IMG/VR virus record: IMGVR_UViG_2541047701_000002 | Strand: one strand, 5' to 3' | Length of the DNA: 35,102 nucleotides | Origin: a virus | Taxonomy: Duplodnaviria; Heunggongvirae; Uroviricota; Caudoviricetes | Part shown: positions 28,995 to 35,102 of the stretch, in pieces | Position numbering within the stretch: position 1 is the first letter of the stretch | Layout of the letters: every line of letters begins with the position of its first letter | Program-made: the position numbers and the translations under genes | Notes under the pieces: model-generated | Databases searched by the model: none | What the model saw: only the letters and a program-made list of their open reading frames with translations | Told to the model about the DNA's origin: nothing

Positions 28995-29010
28995 GACTTC
29001 CCTCTCCCCC

Positions 29011-29042
29011 AAATAAAAAGGCCTGCGATTACCTGCAGGCCT
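29011..29042 (-). terminator. tR2-like rho-independent terminator between ren and ninB
   Basis: Minus strand AGGCCTGC aggtaatc GCAGGCCT followed by TTTTATTTGGGGG; same position as lambda tR2. Confidence 0.6.
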
Positions 29043-29067
29043 GTTATTAGCTCAGTGATGTAGATGG

Positions 29068-29358
29068 TCATCTTTTAACTCCATATACCGCCAATATCCG
29101 TTTCATCGTGGCACTCTGGCGACACTCCTTAAAAATCAGGTTCGTGCTCATCTTTCCTTCCCGTTCTTCCTTGGTAGCAAACCGGTAATACACCGTTCGC
29201 CAGACCTTACCTTCGATAACCAGAAGACCTGCCCGTGCCATTTTAGCCGCGGCCTGATTTATGCTGGTTACTGTTGCGCCTGTTAGCGCGGCAACGTCCG
29301 GCGCACAGAAGCTATTATGCGTCCCCAGGTAATGAATAATTGCCTCTTTGCCCGTCAT
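29068..29358 (-). CDS. ren: Ren (Rex-exclusion resistance protein)
   Basis: 96 aa, MTGKEAIIHYLGTHNSFCAPDVAALTGATVTSINQAAAKMARAG near-identical to lambda Ren. Confidence 0.93.
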   Translation of the reverse strand: MTGKEAIIHYLGTHNSFCAPDVAALTGATVTSINQAAAKMARAGLLVIEGKVWRTVYYRFATKEEREGKMSTNLIFKECRQSATMKRILAVYGVKR

Positions 29359-30056
29359 ACACTTGCTCCTTTCAGTCCTAACTTAGCTTTAATTTCTGCG
29401 ATCTTCGCCAGCGCCTGAACACGATTTAGAGGTCTGCCGCCCATGACAGGAAGTTGTTTTACTGGTTCAGGTATCGTCTCACCACGGTTAATTCGCGCTG
29501 TCATACAGGTCAGTTCATCGGCAGCCTTGCGTCGTAATTCCGCGTCAGTCAGCGCATTGGCCCGCATGTTCTGGTACAGGTTGGTAACCAGCCAGTAGTG
29601 CGCGTTCGATTTCCACGGATAAGACTCTGCATCCGGATACAGGCCTCGCTTCCGGCAATACTCGTAAACCATATCAACCAGCTCGCTGACGTTTGGCAGT
29701 CCGGCGATAACGGATGCTTCTTCCCGGCACCATGCAACAAACTGCCCGGGTGATGGCAGAAATGGTCGATTCTGCCGACGGGCTACGCGCATTCCTGCGT
29801 TAACCTGTTCCATTGTGGTGATCCCGTTTTCCCGGAAAGCCAGAACCCACTGGCGGCGGATTTCGTTCAGTTCGTTCTGGTCACGGTTAGCCAGACTCGC
29901 CGGGAAAGTTGCCAGTAACTGGCTGAACACACCGTTGATGATCTGCGCTACCTGCTGTACCTGCGGCTTTTCGTCGTACTGTTCCGGCATGTTGTTGGCG
30001 ATCCGACGCATCTGCTCACGGTCAAAATTAACCATCTGTGCGGCGATGTTTTTCAT
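29355..30056 (-). CDS. P: Replication protein P (DnaB helicase loader)
   Basis: 233 aa, MKNIAAQMVNFDREQMRRIANNMPEQYDEKPQVQQVAQIINGVF near-identical to lambda P. Confidence 0.95.
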   Translation of the reverse strand: MKNIAAQMVNFDREQMRRIANNMPEQYDEKPQVQQVAQIINGVFSQLLATFPASLANRDQNELNEIRRQWVLAFRENGITTMEQVNAGMRVARRQNRPFLPSPGQFVAWCREEASVIAGLPNVSELVDMVYEYCRKRGLYPDAESYPWKSNAHYWLVTNLYQNMRANALTDAELRRKAADELTCMTARINRGETIPEPVKQLPVMGGRPLNRVQALAKIAEIKAKLGLKGASV

Positions 30057-30952
30057 AAATCCACCCCGTAAATCCAGTCAGTGTTTGTCAGGTCGAGTTT
30101 TGGTTTGCAGGCTGTCACACCTGCCTGTTGCTTGTTACGGTTGATTTCGAGCTGGGTCCACTTGTCGCGGAGTTTGGCCGGGCTCAGCACGTTACCGGAC
30201 CAGAAGTTGTCCTGGCATGCCCAGCGGAACAGTACACACATGTCGCGATGGTTACGTCCGTCACGTTCACGCATCAGGCGGATATCGTTAGCCCACCCTG
30301 CAAAATTCGGTTTTCTGGCTGATGGCGCGATGGTCTTCACCATGTCAAACATCCATTCTGCGGCGGTCAGGTCTTCTGCTGTCCCCCACTTGCTGCCGCT
30401 CTGAATTGCAGCATCCGGTTTCACCACAGAAAGGTCGTTTTCTGGCTGGTCAGAGGATTCGCCAGAATTCTCTGACGAATAATCTTTTCTTTTTTCTTTT
30501 GTAATAGTGTCTTTTGTGTCCCCCTGTTTTGAGGGATAGCAATCCCCCAATTTGAGGGATGTTTTATCCCTCGTTTTAGGGGATTTTCCCTCGTTTTGAG
30601 GGATACACCATTCTGAGATGTTTTTATTTGGTCCAAACATGCCGCCTTGCTGCTTGATAATATTCATTCTGACGAGTTCTAACTTGGCTTCATTGCACCG
30701 TTTGACGGGTAACTTTGTAATCTCGCTAAGTTGAGAATCGGTGATTCTGTCCATTGGTTTATTCCATCCATAGGTTTTACGCAGAATGGCAAGCAGCACT
30801 TTAAACTGTCGCTTGGTCAGATCTGCGCCTGAATAAGCCTCAAGCAGCATATTTGATAGTCTGGCGTAACCATCATCGAGATCTGCCACATTACGCTCCT
30901 GTTTGGCAAAGTTACCTCTGCAGAAGTTGAGTATTTTTGCTGTATTTGTCAT
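30053..30952 (-). CDS. O: Replication initiator protein O
   Basis: 299 aa, near-identical to lambda O; contains ori-lambda iterons. Confidence 0.95.
   Translation of the reverse strand: MTNTAKILNFCRGNFAKQERNVADLDDGYARLSNMLLEAYSGADLTKRQFKVLLAILRKTYGWNKPMDRITDSQLSEITKLPVKRCNEAKLELVRMNIIKQQGGMFGPNKNISEWCIPQNEGKSPKTRDKTSLKLGDCYPSKQGDTKDTITKEKRKDYSSENSGESSDQPENDLSVVKPDAAIQSGSKWGTAEDLTAAEWMFDMVKTIAPSARKPNFAGWANDIRLMRERDGRNHRDMCVLFRWACQDNFWSGNVLSPAKLRDKWTQLEINRNKQQAGVTACKPKLDLTNTDWIYGVDL
30455..30605 (-). repeat. ori: ori-lambda: four ~19-bp iterons plus adjacent AT-rich region inside O
   Basis: Minus strand ATCCCTCAAAACGAGGGA / ATCCCCTAAAACGAGGGA / ACATCCCTCAAATTGGGGGA / TATCCCTCAAAACAGGGGGA, then AAAAGAAAAAAGAAAAGATTATTCG; matches the lambda ori as I recall it. 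Confidence 0.85.
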
Positions 30953-30984
30953 AATGACTCCTGTGGATTGATCCAGTAATGACC

Positions 30985-31281
30985 TCAGAATTCCATCTGG
31001 ATTTGTTCAGAACGCTCGGTTGCCGCCGGGCGTTTTTTATTGGTGAGTCCATCAAGCGCATACTTAAAAGCCCTGCTAATCGGACTGATGTCTGATGCCA
31101 TTCCGAAAGCACACAAGACCGAAGCAATAAATCTCCAGTCCGTTCTGCTTATCTTCGATTCATGACAGCCAATCATCTTTGCCAGACCGCGCTGGGTAAT
31201 AGCTGACAGATTGATAAGTAAATCTGTTTCTGCGCGATCAACGTCACGCTGTGATAGTTTGCTGTAACTTGTTCTTTCCAT
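30985..31281 (-). CDS. cII: Transcriptional activator cII (mosaic: non-lambda N-terminal region, lambda C-terminus)
   Basis: 98 aa; C-terminal TNKKRPAATERSEQIQMEF identical to lambda cII; the N-terminal ~75 aa (MERTSYSKLSQRDVDRAETDLLINLSAITQRGLAKMIGCHESKISRTDWRF) differ from lambda but retain an HTH. Confidence 0.85.
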   Translation of the reverse strand: MERTSYSKLSQRDVDRAETDLLINLSAITQRGLAKMIGCHESKISRTDWRFIASVLCAFGMASDISPISRAFKYALDGLTNKKRPAATERSEQIQMEF

Positions 31282-31366
31282 TTCTTAAGATTTCCAATAG
31301 TGAATAGTTAGTTGAAAGGTATGCGTGGAAACGCATATGGCCTTAGTTGGTCAGATATCTTGGAAC

Positions 31367-31411
31367 TCGCTTTTCAGCGACGTAGGACGAATGTCCGTTG
31401 TTACAAAGAGC
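31367..31411 (-). promoter_or_regulatory. nutR: nutR-like site (boxA plus boxB hairpin) between cro and cII
   Basis: Minus strand CGCTCTTTGTAACAACG (boxA-like) then UCGCUGAAAAGCGA (5-bp stem, GAAA loop), same architecture as the nutL candidate; coordinates approximate. Confidence 0.55.
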
Positions 31412-31422
31412 GGATCCGCTTA

Positions 31423-31638
31423 TTAAGCGGCTTTGTGTTCCGGCGGGAACACGTCATCAAGACTGACTTTTGCGCCTAACTTGTTTAGGCACGCAACAAG
31501 AGCACGGCATGTTTTAAGGTCTGGGAAGCGACGACCAGATTCCCAATGTCCGATAGCTCCCTGTGTGCATCCAACTGCCTTAGCAAGTGTTGTTTGAGAG
31601 ATATTCAGTGACTCTCGATATTTTCGTAGGTTGCTCAT
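31423..31638 (-). CDS. cro: Cro-like repressor (HTH, non-lambda specificity)
   Basis: Start trimmed to MSNLRKYRESLNISQTTLAKAVGCTQGAIGHWESGRRFP (GGAGG RBS); 71 aa HTH protein divergently transcribed from cI. Confidence 0.85.
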   Translation of the reverse strand: MSNLRKYRESLNISQTTLAKAVGCTQGAIGHWESGRRFPDLKTCRALVACLNKLGAKVSLDDVFPPEHKAA

Positions 31639-31754
31639 ATGCCCTCCATAGTAAACACGAATAAAAAATACAATATGTACTTTGCGAATACAAGTAAAAA
31701 TACACATTGTGCATGGATGGTTCCAGTACAGAGCGTAATAATAAGGACATGAAA
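31639..31754. promoter_or_regulatory. Right operator / divergent promoter region (OR, PR, PRM) between cro and cI
   Basis: AT-rich 116-bp divergent intergenic region with three occurrences of the half-site ATACA(A): ATACAATATGTAC, ATACAAGTAAAAATACA, ATACACATTGTGCAT. Confidence 0.6.
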
Positions 31755-32408
31755 ATGAAATGGTATGAACTGGCTAGATCCAGAATGAAAGAGCTCGGCA
31801 TAACTCAAGAGAAGTTAGCCGAAGAGCTAGGTATGACGCAGGGTGGGATTGGACACTGGTTGCGCGGATCTCGTCATCCATCTCTTAGTGATATTGGTGT
31901 GGTGTTTAAATACCTTGGTATTGATAACATATCATTCAACCACGACGGGACATTTTCACCTGTTGGCGAATACTCATCGGCCCCAGTTAAAAAACAATAT
32001 GAGTACCCTGTTTTTTCTCATGTTCAGGCTGGGATGTTCTCTCCAGAACTCAGAACCTTTACCAAAGGCGATGCGGAGAGATTGGTAAGCACAACCAAAA
32101 AAGCCAGTGACTCTGCATTCTGGCTTGAGGTTGAAGGTAACTCAATGACCGCACCAACAGGTTCCAAACCCAGCTTTCCTGACGGGATGTTAATTCTGGT
32201 TGACCCTGAGCAAGCTGTTGAGCCCGGCGATTTCTGCATAGCCAGACTTGGTGGTGATGAATTTACCTTCAAGAAACTGATCAGGGATAGCGGTCAGGTG
32301 TTTCTACAGCCACTAAACCCACAATACCCAATGATCCCATGCAATGAGAGTTGTTCCGTTGTGGGGAAAGTTATCGCCAGCCAATGGCCTGAAGAGACGT
32401 TTGGGTGA
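31755..32408 (+). CDS. cI: CI repressor, chimeric: novel N-terminal HTH domain plus lambda-identical C-terminal LexA/S24-type autocleavage domain
   Basis: C-terminal ~130 aa ([22 protein letters not shown]...GNSMTAPTG...[46 protein letters not shown]) match lambda cI; N-terminal [38 protein letters not shown] differs; start chosen at the second ATG (AAGGA 7 nt upstream); the ATG 6 nt upstream is an alternative. Confidence 0.9.
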
Positions 32409-32447
32409 TGAAACCACTTTTATCTACAATTTACAGGGCGGTAAACA

Positions 32448-33005
32448 TTGGCAAAAATAGATGATTATCAGCCAAGCCAAGTAGAAGTTGATAAAGTACT
32501 TTATTGTAAAAAAATAGTTAACTTTTCTGGCGTTAAATGGAAACAGAAACCAAGTCGCTCTGATATGTGGCTACAAGCCCATATCATCCCCTTGGATGAG
32601 GATTGTATACCTATACAAGGGCTAAAGTTTGAACTGAAATGGAAACCAGATCAGGATTCAGAACCTGATGACCCGATTTCTTACCCTAAAATAAATATTA
32701 TTGCTTTCTATCATAACAAGAGGGTTTTCGCGGTAGATACCTATCACTTTGACAAACACACGAATAGTTACAAGGTCGATCATCCGAAGTACCAAGATAT
32801 CATTTACGGTGCTCACTACCATGTATACTATGAAGAAGCTGGATACTATAGTGATAGAATAGCGTTTCCAATCGAAGATGACATAAACCCAGATGACCTG
32901 GTAGGGTATTGGAATTACTTCTGTAAACATCTGAACATAACTTACTCTGGGAGAATACCTTTACCGCTTGAAGATGAGTCGGGGCAAATGGGGTTTGGAA
33001 TATGA
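32448..33005 (+). CDS. Hypothetical protein A of a two-gene cassette downstream of cI (rexAB-equivalent position)
   Basis: 185-codon ORF starting 40 nt after the cI stop; apparent TTG start (first in-frame ATG is 39 codons in); AT-rich; acidic, Tyr/His-rich (HYHVYYEEAGYY); no TM segment; no family recognised by eye. Confidence 0.6.
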   Translation: MAKIDDYQPSQVEVDKVLYCKKIVNFSGVKWKQKPSRSDMWLQAHIIPLDEDCIPIQGLKFELKWKPDQDSEPDDPISYPKINIIAFYHNKRVFAVDTYHFDKHTNSYKVDHPKYQDIIYGAHYHVYYEEAGYYSDRIAFPIEDDINPDDLVGYWNYFCKHLNITYSGRIPLPLEDESGQMGFGI

Positions 33006-33754
33006 TGTGCTCAACAGTGATCTCACAACTAGGTTTCGAATGCCATCCAATAGGCAAGACCTTGAGAATTATCAGTCCATTCACTTACTGTGATGATGGA
33101 GAGCATGTCGGTGCCTTTATCCGTGAAGTCAATGGTAGGTATTTAGTTAGTGACAGATGCGATGCCTTAATGAATATGGAGGCAAGAGGGATCTCGCTTA
33201 CCAAAAAACGACTTGATGAGATACGACAATTACTGCTTAAAGAAGGCGCAGAACTCAATGCTCGAGGAGAAATCATTGCTTGGGCAACAGAAAAGGATGT
33301 CGGTGCGATTACATCGAACATAATTAGAGCTGGTATACTCGCATCAACTTTGTCGTTAGACTGGTATCAGCCAGTTCAAGCTGAAAAGTTTGAAAGTATG
33401 GTTATTGATTATCTATATCACACAGAGCTTAGAGACGCACTTTCTCTTCGTGAAAACGTATATGGCTTGAGTGGACATCAAATTACCGTCCCTGTAACAA
33501 TAAAAACCGACATACCTAAATACGTTTTTACATCAAGCGTGAAACACGGAGGAAGCTGGAATAGTGCTTACTCATTGCTTGGGAAACTAATTGATCTTAA
33601 AGCTTCAAGTGAGGAGTATAACAACAGATTTGTTGTTATAGACAGCGAAGCAATTGGTGATCAAATGCAACAACTCTCCTTACTCTTCCATGAATCAAGC
33701 CAAGTTCTACCATTCTCCAAAAGAGAGACTTGGGTTAAGAGACTTGCAGCATAA
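33002..33754 (+). CDS. Hypothetical protein B of the two-gene cassette (translationally coupled to protein A)
   Basis: ATG overlaps the stop of protein A (ATGA); 250 aa; AT-rich codon usage; followed by a terminator; no family recognised by eye. Confidence 0.65.
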   Translation: MMCSTVISQLGFECHPIGKTLRIISPFTYCDDGEHVGAFIREVNGRYLVSDRCDALMNMEARGISLTKKRLDEIRQLLLKEGAELNARGEIIAWATEKDVGAITSNIIRAGILASTLSLDWYQPVQAEKFESMVIDYLYHTELRDALSLRENVYGLSGHQITVPVTIKTDIPKYVFTSSVKHGGSWNSAYSLLGKLIDLKASSEEYNNRFVVIDSEAIGDQMQQLSLLFHESSQVLPFSKRETWVKRLAA

Positions 33755-33757
33755 TAC

Positions 33758-33786
33758 AACCCGGCCTCAGCGCCGGGTTTTCTTTG
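33758..33786 (+). terminator. Rho-independent terminator ending the cI-cassette transcript (timm-like)
   Basis: AACCCGGC ctcagc GCCGGGTT followed by TTCTTTG, 4 nt after the cassette stop codon. Confidence 0.65.
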
Positions 33787-33954
33787 CCTCACGTTCGCCC
33801 ACCTAAAAACACATAACCAATTATATTTATTGAAAAATAAATAGATGCAACCCACTAAACCACGCAATTCTGATCTCTCCTTACATCGCCGAGGCAATAC
33901 ATCCACGCTAAAAAACAACACTATTAAATACAAAGCGTTATAAAAAACCACGCC

Positions 33955-34005
33955 AACTTACAACAAATTGTATTGATCTTGTAAAGTACATATCGTACTA
34001 TTTAA
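33955..34005 (+). promoter_or_regulatory. Candidate PL promoter with OL operators
   Basis: TTGATC (-35), 17-nt spacer, TACTAT (-10); operator-like AGTACATATCGTACT in the spacer and TTACAACAAATTGTATT overlapping the -35; same ATACA/TGTAT half-sites as OR; coordinates approximate. Confidence 0.5.
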
Positions 34006-34046
34006 CCGTCAGCAGGACGCTGGAAGCCAAATGGAACAGACTGGCA

Positions 34047-34092
34047 GGCTCTTTAAACAACGTCGACTCTCGACTACGTGGCTGAAAAGCCA
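34047..34092 (+). promoter_or_regulatory. nutL: nutL-like site (boxA GCTCTTTAAACAA plus boxB hairpin)
   Basis: boxA-like GGCTCTTTAAACAACG followed about 20 nt later by UGGCUGAAAAGCCA (5-bp stem, GAAA loop), about 100 nt upstream of N. Confidence 0.6.
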
Positions 34093-34190
34093 GATCACCC
34101 AACCACATAAGCTGTGGGATGCAATGCCGAAGCAACCGTCTCAGGAGGAGCTTCGAGATTGCATCGCCAAAGTTTATTCGGGAGGAATCC

Positions 34191-34463
34191 ATGTCCAGAA
34201 AAACAGAATTTAAAGGCACCGCAGCTTCTCGCCGTAGAGCTCGTCGCGCAAATCTGCAAAGTCAGGAGGCGATCAGCTCCGACAAGCTACACAGGCCAAC
34301 CCCTTCACGAGTGGTCTTGCAATGCAAGCTCAAACCAGCAATGAGAGCAGAAGTGATAACTCTGACAACGTTGACCAGAAAATATGAAGGTTCAACTTGT
34401 CTTCCGAACGTAGCTCTTTACGCGGCAGGCTACCGGAAATCAAAACAACTGACGGCGAGATGA
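34191..34463 (+). CDS. N: Antiterminator N (P22 gene-24 type, arginine-rich motif)
   Basis: Start trimmed to MSRKTEFKGTAASRRRARRANLQSQEAISSDK (GGAGGAA RBS); C-terminus PNVALYAAGYRKSKQLTAR resembles P22 N; 90 aa. Confidence 0.8.
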   Translation: MSRKTEFKGTAASRRRARRANLQSQEAISSDKLHRPTPSRVVLQCKLKPAMRAEVITLTTLTRKYEGSTCLPNVALYAAGYRKSKQLTAR

Positions 34464-34471
34464 TAAATTCA

Positions 34472-35102
<631 letters not shown>

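Follow-up and report, generated by a model that had tools for sequence, protein, structure and literature searches.

Antitermination proteins of the N type and the N-utilization (nut) sites on which they act have been described in several phages, and here we compare with them one such set, the N gene, nutL and nutR at the 3' end of a 35,102 nt window of DNA from a virus of the Caudoviricetes (IMG/VR record IMGVR_UViG_2541047701_000002; "the window" is the whole stretch that was analysed). In lambda the boxB hairpin of the nut site carries a GAAAA or GAAGA pentaloop with its fourth base looped out, and the C-terminus of lambda N is unrelated to that of the protein studied here. Lambda N prefers a GNRNA pentaloop (PMC12027372). 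In P22, where N is the gene 24 protein, nuclear magnetic resonance (NMR) showed that the loop, GACAA, takes up a GNRA-like fold from which its C is extruded, contacting peptide residues His7 and Arg11 (PMC12550061). RNase footprinting confirmed two hairpins in the nutR of H-19B, where N protects the boxB loop while NusA and Rho bind the spacer, and H-19B nutR/tR1 is in experimental use as a Rho-dependent terminator (PMC3526286). The nut-binding region of H-19B N is known from loss-of-function mutations (R3H, S11F, R15C/P and R18P); the C-terminal domain of the protein binds RNA polymerase, with suppressor L108F located within the conserved CLPNVALYAAG motif. For epsilon34 the genome paper of 2008 predicted a novel boxB specificity from the divergent N-terminus of N (PMC2629481). 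Finally, the corresponding places in the VT2-Sakai record AP000422.1 bear the annotations "putative N-utilization leftward" and "rightward", leftward promoter pL, operators and, likewise as putative, a Rho-dependent tR1.

With high confidence we read the module in the window as the early N-type processive antitermination system of a lambda-like prophage, in the version carried by the Shiga-toxin (Stx2) phage VT2-Sakai and numerous further E. coli prophages. The encoded N gives a full-length match to the Pfam family PF25694 ("Transcriptional antitermination N peptide") with an E-value of 1.5e-32, also matches PHROG 271 ("anti-termination protein N-like"), and differs from VT2-Sakai N at one of 90 aa (98.9% identity). 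The nut sites are nutL, GCTCTTTAAACAACGTCGACTCTCGACTACGTGGCTGAAAAGCCA at 34048-34092 (+), and nutR, GCTCTTTGTAACAACGGACATTCGTCCTACGTCGCTGAAAAGCGA at 31411-31367 (-), between the cro stop and cII; VT2-Sakai nutL is identical, and in its nutR the boxA, spacer and boxB are identical and only two flanking bases differ. Both features of the VT2-Sakai-type class, an N at least ~98% identical and the boxB sequences UGGCUGAAAAGCCA (nutL) and UCGCUGAAAAGCGA (nutR), are thus found in the window. Gene order is the same in VT2-Sakai, and beyond the bases and residue mentioned the module itself shows no difference; the window differs in representing a prophage without Shiga toxin (Stx) genes, in its cargo between cI and pL, and in the insertion sequence IS100 after N. 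The same N/nut module is present in Stx2 phages I/II, 1717, 2851 and Nil2 as well as in the non-Stx phages ev207, ev017 and PhiR57_1. A 714-nt pL-nutL-N stretch is 100% identical to phages ev207, ev017, PhiR57_1 and PhiR63_2; with VT2-Sakai and numerous further Stx phages its identity is ~93%. The module is therefore already known, its gene and both sites having been annotated in VT2-Sakai more than two decades ago.

The N protein consists of an arginine-rich motif (ARM, ~residues 1-22), a central region and the C-terminal tail CLPNVALYAAGYRKSKQLTAR, and contains 20 K+R against 5 D+E, eight K+R being within the first 30 residues. Its start is likely ATG 34191, which lies 5 nt after GGAGG, the Shine-Dalgarno sequence being GGGAGG at 34180-34185. 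A 114-aa form starting at 34119 was rejected, as this codon is inside the conserved leader hairpin and lacks a good Shine-Dalgarno sequence; moreover, homologues are annotated with 90 aa and ATG 34119 is GTG in phage POCJ13. A first-pass annotation, made from the sequence alone, had described N as a short arginine-rich protein with a C-terminus like that of P22 gene 24 rather than lambda N. The Pfam N_peptide match bears this out, as does tblastn, by which only the last 24 aa match P22 gp24 (79% identity, E 3e-4). Over N as a whole the identity to the P22 protein is 34-43%. Similarity to lambda N was not detectable by sequence, and the tail aligns with those of P22 and H-19B N and not with lambda's. 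The ARM homology that had been expected upon alignment was likewise recovered: seven of 18 aligned residues are identical between the window (GTAASRRRARRANLQSQE) and P22 (GNAKTRRHERRRKLAIER), with the shared pattern G.A..RR..RR..L. In the multiple alignment the N-termini read FKGTAASRRRARRANLQ in the window, FAGNAKTRRHERRRKL in P22 and FKGNSRSRRRERLKAKALANG in H-19B.

Identity to H-19B N amounts to 41-57% (tblastn gives a full-length match of ~41% to H-19B/933W N), and the last 21 aa of the tail are identical. R3, R15 and R18 of the window N are the same arginines as those at the H-19B positions whose mutation abolishes antitermination, and the H-19B L108 site corresponds to L71; by homology, the tail is the putative RNA polymerase-binding region. 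In the central region HRPTPSR is conserved with H-19B and with epsilon34, where it reads HRPTLSR.

The same annotation had reported, in the N leader and between cro and cII, a boxA-like GCTCTTT element followed by a hairpin with a 5-bp stem and a GAAA loop, and had taken them for a matched nutL and nutR at the expected positions. Both sites are indeed in the sequence. The pattern GCTCTTT-N20-35-GCTGAAAAGC has exactly two matches, nutL and nutR, and none in 100 dinucleotide-preserving shuffles; taken alone, the 10-mer GCTGAAAAGC is likewise found, in exact form, nowhere else. That account lacked the additional covarying hairpin that each of the two sites has in its spacer and that CUACG joins to boxB. 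The nutL boxA resembles the P22 boxA GCUCUUUAAC. Between nutL and nutR the boxB stems differ by one compensatory swap of G-C for C-G, and across ten nut sites 98.6% of the boxB cells are paired, with double (compensatory) changes at three of the five pairs; the observed value was attained by none of 500 shuffles, and in slid controls it collapsed. The hairpins thus combine a GNRA-type loop, in this class GAAA or GCAA, with compensatory changes. For the spacer hairpins the covariation count covers the two outer pairs only, because MAFFT misaligned these hairpins of unequal length. Among 80 close relatives (IMG/VR loci with N 98-100% identical) boxB is invariant, every nutL and nutR found having the same boxB core, and drift is confined to the loop of the nutL spacer hairpin (CUC, ACUC, ACAC, AUC, GCAC), whose stem is kept; other phages have a different hairpin at the nutL spacer position.

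That the GAAA hairpins are not N sites at all, being chance, terminator or RNase elements next to a spacer hairpin that is the real boxB, we find barely credible: although the spacer hairpins match the GAAA hairpins in stability and are present in every predicted fold, and a simple scan picks out the nutL spacer hairpin as resembling a terminator on the opposite strand, the composite motif stands at two canonical positions where none is expected by chance, the GAAA hairpin aligns column for column with the boxB of P22 and H-19B, its loop is invariant while that of the spacer hairpin drifts, its loop type tracks the ARM class, and no U-tract follows either hairpin. Deletion of the spacer dyad in H-19B, studied by Neely & Friedman in 2000, is said to have had little effect.

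As a side observation, the spacer hairpin, variable in itself, is flanked by ACAAYG on the 5' and CUACG on the 3' side (window 34058-34062 and 34074-34078; 31401-31397 and 31385-31381). These flanks are invariant at each nutL and nutR site of the H-19B, VT2-Sakai and epsilon34 classes, even where boxA is degenerate, and could be a protein contact, perhaps for NusA.

The label "P22-type" given by the first-pass annotation holds at family level, for ARM and C-terminus, but not for specificity class nor for nut architecture, in which spacer hairpin and tR1 are H-19B-like. H-19B and not P22 is the nearest studied system, because its nutR spacer hairpin is identical and its tR1 region differs at only 3 of 85 nt (~96% identity). 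The layout of boxA, ACAAYG, spacer hairpin, CUACG and boxB is common to the window and the Stx1/Stx2 phages H-19B/933W, whose system has been studied experimentally, and the spacer dyad hairpin, a hallmark of that class, is present. The H-19B nutR boxB is UCGCU-GACAA-AGCGA, and the window nutR boxB is the same minus the loop C, in an otherwise identical context. The other hallmarks of the H-19B/933W class, a 127-aa N, the ARM RSRRRERLKAKALANG and a GACAA loop, are replaced by a 90-aa N, the ARM AASRRRARRANLQ and GAAA; the H-19B protein carries a ~29-aa central insert and its ARM continues ...RERLKAKALANG. While boxA is degenerate or absent in H-19B it is near consensus in the window, which at the level of sequence suggests normal NusB/NusE dependence of the module; H-19B reportedly needs neither NusB nor S10, again according to Neely & Friedman in 2000.

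P22 (NMR structure 1A4T) shares with the window the ARM pattern, the C-terminal tail, a homologous pL leader, a boxA of GCUCUUUAA and a boxB with a 5-bp stem and U-A closing pair, and differs in its GACAA pentaloop with looped-out C and in having no spacer hairpin. The N of Salmonella phage epsilon34 (gene 43) has a similar ARM, GSAAGRRRERRAALQ, and GAAA at both nut sites (CGGCU-GAAA-AGCCG and UCGCU-GAAA-AGCGA; its NutR boxB is annotated), but it is a long protein (120 aa) with an H-19B-like central insert, and its nutL has a different spacer hairpin and no consensus boxA. Lambda shares the regulatory logic and positions, together with a boxB of GNRA fold closed by U-A.

Given the aligning ARM, the 79% identical tail and the P22-like boxB stem and closing pair, the window N might be thought to have the RNA specificity of P22 gene 24 and to be interchangeable with P22 or H-19B N on a GACAA boxB. 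This is unlikely. Both boxB loops are without a looped-out C, and the residues aligned with His7 and Arg11 are Arg and Ala, so that the marks of the P22 gene-24 class (GACAA, third base looped out, His/Arg contacts) are missing from the window. ARM and loop classes also switch together in near-identical nut flanks, and it was for an ARM similar to the window's that the epsilon34 authors predicted a novel boxB specificity (PMC2629481).

Across the phages compared, ARM class tracks boxB loop class at both nut sites. Tetraloops (GAAA/GCAA) are found in the window, VT2-Sakai, POCJ13, epsilon34 and an Enterobacter prophage, pentaloops (GACAA/GUCAA) in H-19B, Oslo, P22, Escherichia albertii and Lonsdalea, and the loop switches amid near-identical flanks between window and H-19B at nutR and between epsilon34 and Oslo. 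POCJ13 (N 84% identical) combines a window-like ARM with GCAA at nutL and GAAA at nutR; epsilon34 and the Enterobacter adelaidei prophage combine the ARM GSA[AS]GRRRERRAALQ with GAAA. An H-19B-like ARM goes with GUCAA and GACAA in Oslo and 103203_sal5, and a P22-like ARM with GACAA in the E. albertii and Lonsdalea prophages. Phages of the HK620/HK630 type have the ARM DDNARNRRRARRQAQ and C-GAAA-U; lambda-like ARMs occur with GAAAA in a Winslowiella prophage and with GAAA in a Rosenbergiella prophage. The C-terminal tail motif is common to all of these. We propose, tentatively and with somewhat less than even confidence, that N of the VT2-Sakai/epsilon34 class reads a true 4-nt GNRA tetraloop and forms a separate, uncharacterised specificity class switched from that of H-19B/P22, in contrast to the three solved N-boxB complexes, which have pentaloops (lambda, P22) or a hexaloop (phi21). 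Within this proposal, the switch may have gone through a 1-nt loop deletion at both nut sites and a few ARM changes, for instance where the window aligns with His7 and Arg11 of P22, and the class may offer no looped-out base for contacts with N or NusA. A search of the literature for reports of a tetraloop boxB from Stx or VT2-Sa phages yielded no specific description.

Two groups of prophages in the comparison stand apart. Loci from Citrobacter, Pantoea, Pseudescherichia, Cedecea and Ewingella (L097, L098, L099, L106, L107) have the same tail with a different N-terminus, MNSRQRYKAKRAAEHR..., and a boxA-like GCUCAUUAA followed by long-stemmed hairpins with loops GAUGC, GUUGC, GAUUC or GAAUC; this is apparently an uncharacterised ARM and boxB pairing. 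In two Lonsdalea britannica loci (L104, L105) N has a P22-like ARM, a CLPNVAIYAAGHRKSE tail and an extra lambda/phi21-like C-terminal extension (...CRGTQKFKGKSIPLI), which hints that the C-termini of lambda-type and P22-type N may be related modules; their leader has an extra GNRA hairpin, UCCCG-GAAA/GCAA-CGGGA, upstream of boxA.

The module is widespread: nutL and N were found at a coverage of at least 80% in 759 of 5426 complete E. coli genomes (~14%). The first-pass annotation had proposed that the N/nut pair co-varied with this immunity region. The co-variation seen links the ARM to the boxB loops of both sites; N/nut and the repressor do not co-vary. In 75 nutR-to-nutL intervals (the window and 74 IMG/VR loci with N 98-100% identical and boxB cores identical), cI/cro were those of the window in 53, diverged in seven and without detectable similarity in 15, and an N/nut set specific to this immunity region was rejected on account of these 22 differing loci. 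It follows that the N/nutL/nutR trio brackets exchangeable immunity and cargo cassettes; the intervals fall into 21 clusters of 1.27-2.98 kb. Separately, N genes like those of E. coli phages were seen on short contigs of a "Segatella copri" metagenome-assembled genome (L092, with an N 97% identical to the window's, and L096, whose translated N closely resembles the HK620/HK630 type) and of "Xanthomonas pisi" (L094, whose translated N closely resembles that of H-19B). These most likely are contamination or mis-binning in public genomes.

By blastn the window is 99.997% identical over 35102 nt to a prophage of E. coli MS15236, a cerebrospinal fluid isolate from Sweden. Its head and tail genes are of the lambda type and its late antiterminator is QuuD; stx genes are absent. 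The open reading frames (ORFs), with Pfam matches and RefSeq annotation, identify the 3' end of the window as the early regulatory region of this prophage, with the order P-O-cII-cro / cI-cargo-terminator-pL-nutL-N, which is canonical synteny (Table 1); N is the first gene of the pL operon, adjoins the repressor region and is divergent from cro-cII-O-P.

Table 1. Position of the antitermination module and its neighbours in the window
Feature	Position	Strand	Remarks
P	29355-30056	-	
O	30053-30952	-	
cII	30985-31281	-	Pfam Phage_CII
tR1 region	31282-31366	-	between nutR and cII
nutR boxB UCGCU-GAAA-AGCGA	31380-31367	-	5-bp stem, GAAA tetraloop
nutR spacer hairpin GGAC-AUUC-GUCC	31396-31385	-	identical to H-19B nutR spacer hairpin
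nutR boxA GCUCUUUGUAACAA	31411-31398	-	within counterpart region of VT2-Sakai "putative N-utilization rightward"
cro	31423-31638	-	helix-turn-helix
cI, LexA/S24-type	ends 32408	+	
Two cargo ORFs	32448-33005, 33002-33754	+	overlapping, between cI and pL
Intrinsic terminator	33758-33779	+	3' of cargo ORFs
pL	33973-34001	+	-35 TTGATC, 17-nt spacer, -10 TACTAT; read from sequence
nutL boxA GCUCUUUAAACAA	34048-34060	+	inside VT2-Sakai feature "putative N-utilization leftward", identical sequence
nutL spacer hairpin GUCGA-CUC-UCGAC	34062-34074	+	forms in every predicted fold
nutL boxB UGGCU-GAAA-AGCCA	34079-34092	+	5-bp stem, GAAA tetraloop
Long N-leader hairpin	34107-34177	+	between nutL and N Shine-Dalgarno
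N, 90 aa	34191-34463	+	Pfam PF25694 N_peptide; PHROG 271
IS100 (IS21 family; istA)	34473-35102		same direction as pL transcription

By homology to the studied phages, RNA binding, Nus factor use, polymerase contact and read-through would proceed as follows. Upon loss of the cI repressor pL and the rightward promoter pR would fire, and each transcript would soon contain a nut site with boxA, a small spacer hairpin and boxB. The ARM of N would bind the boxB hairpin with its 5-bp stem, U-A closing pair and GAAA tetraloop of the GNRA type; NusA would join at N and the spacer, NusB/NusE presumably on the near-consensus boxA, and the tail of N would contact RNA polymerase. Rightward, the modified polymerase would then read through the Rho-dependent tR1 into cII-O-P, and leftward through terminators beyond N, here into IS100.

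Some results weigh against such a functioning antitermination module. At equilibrium, isolated 55-nt nut RNAs (34046-34100, +; 31362-31416, -) favour pairing of boxA with boxB over the two-hairpin fold by 0.4-2.1 kcal/mol (nutL -14.1 vs -12.0; nutR -12.3 vs -11.9), and the boxB pair probability in these RNAs is ~5% for nutL and 33% for nutR. At both sites GCUCUUU of boxA is complementary to GAAAAGC, the boxB loop and 3' arm. The boxB would therefore have to rely on co-transcriptional folding or on an occupied boxA; when boxA is masked, as it would be by bound NusB/NusE, the two-hairpin fold is the minimum-energy structure. The competition is probably incidental, because relatives without boxA, e.g. 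H-19B at nutL, still keep boxB, although it might also be a switch that NusB/NusE binding resolves. The earlier expectation that the hairpins fold was upheld for boxB in isolation (nutL -6.4 kcal/mol, z -3.9; nutR -5.7 kcal/mol, z -4.6), with the equilibrium fold of the 55-nt RNAs as its one qualification. Rfam, scanned at E<=1 with 29000-35102, returned three weak irrelevant matches only and no nut family. N, its putative NusA-binding central region included, matched no PDB chain by sequence even at E<=10, which thus yields no direct tie to the peptide structures of P22 or lambda, in which the peptides are short. The literature search found no experiment on the tetraloop N class, to which function is assigned by homology. 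Lastly, genes of the pL operon that lie beyond IS100 may be expressed less well because of the insertion, although N and both nut sites are intact.

IS100 starts 9 bp past the N stop and in MS15236 parts N from sieB, ral, a DUF2528 gene, cIII, kil, gam, bet and exo. Only one or two of 5426 complete genomes were found to have the identical N-IS100 junction. Together with a few prophage pseudogenes (a truncated DUF1364 gene, a partial tail-fibre gene) it could indicate that the module is a non-functional relic of a decaying prophage, but we regard this as quite unlikely, since N, both nut sites, pL, cro, cII, O and P are intact, the 714-nt stretch is that of the deposited phages ev207, ev017 and PhiR57_1 without a single difference, and the insertion is clean, with a 5-bp target duplication (TTCAT, 34468-34472), and outside all elements.

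A consensus promoter scan found neither pL nor pR, and pL was consequently placed by homology, being collinear with the "putative major leftward promoter" of VT2-Sakai AP000422.1. Its transcript starts at ~34008-34010, within CCGTCAGCAGGACG, and its leader, CAGCAGGACGCTGG.AGCCAAA, has a homologous counterpart in that of P22 pL. The 145-nt N leader folds at -53.4 kcal/mol (z -4.9). In a consensus fold of six diverged leaders (POCJ13, H-19B, Oslo, epsilon34 and HK630 among them), 19 basal pairs of the long hairpin are kept, seven of them with compensatory changes, and in the fold of the window itself CC..CC at 34099-34104 pairs with part of the Shine-Dalgarno GGGAGG. The lambda N leader carries an RNase III / N-autoregulation element, and by analogy the hairpin may serve in RNase III processing, translational control or N autoregulation. 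On the rightward side, the VT2-Sakai record has a putative Rho-dependent terminator at the tR1 position, and judged from sequence the window's tR1 is likely the Rho-dependent terminator that N must overcome.

Further observations concern the neighbourhood. A 60-aa ORF at 34031-34213 (+; RefSeq hypothetical WP_000438342.1; PHROG 3137) crosses nutL and the leader hairpin. Its start ATG is ACG in P22 and HK630-type leaders and absent in POCJ13, all of these nevertheless retaining nutL and N. The gene call is probably spurious. Among relatives with the same N, the nutR-to-nutL interval varies most in the cargo slot between cI and pL, the position of rexAB in lambda. The two cargo genes have DUF6978-like and DUF1828 Pfam matches, and they match both PADLOC PDC-M24 candidate defence components, in order (A E 4.8e-4; B E 4.7e-10). 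A strong intrinsic terminator antisense to the cII 3' end (31009-31036, +) stands where the oop RNA terminator sits in lambda and P22.

With the module in about one in seven complete E. coli genomes, the finding by itself adds little. Its practical value lies in annotation: RefSeq labels N "hypothetical protein" in the window genome and many others, and the 60-aa ORF over nutL should probably not be there. If the tetraloop proposal is true, the class would provide a natural minimal boxB with which to ask about the role of the extruded base in N-NusA-nut assembly. Tetraloop and pentaloop boxB, a single loop nucleotide apart in nut sites that are nearly the same otherwise, make a natural case of protein-RNA co-evolution and could be a guide for specificity swaps. 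For enterobacterial prophages more widely, the comparison points to one conserved RNA polymerase-binding tail that has been joined to many pairs of ARM and boxB.

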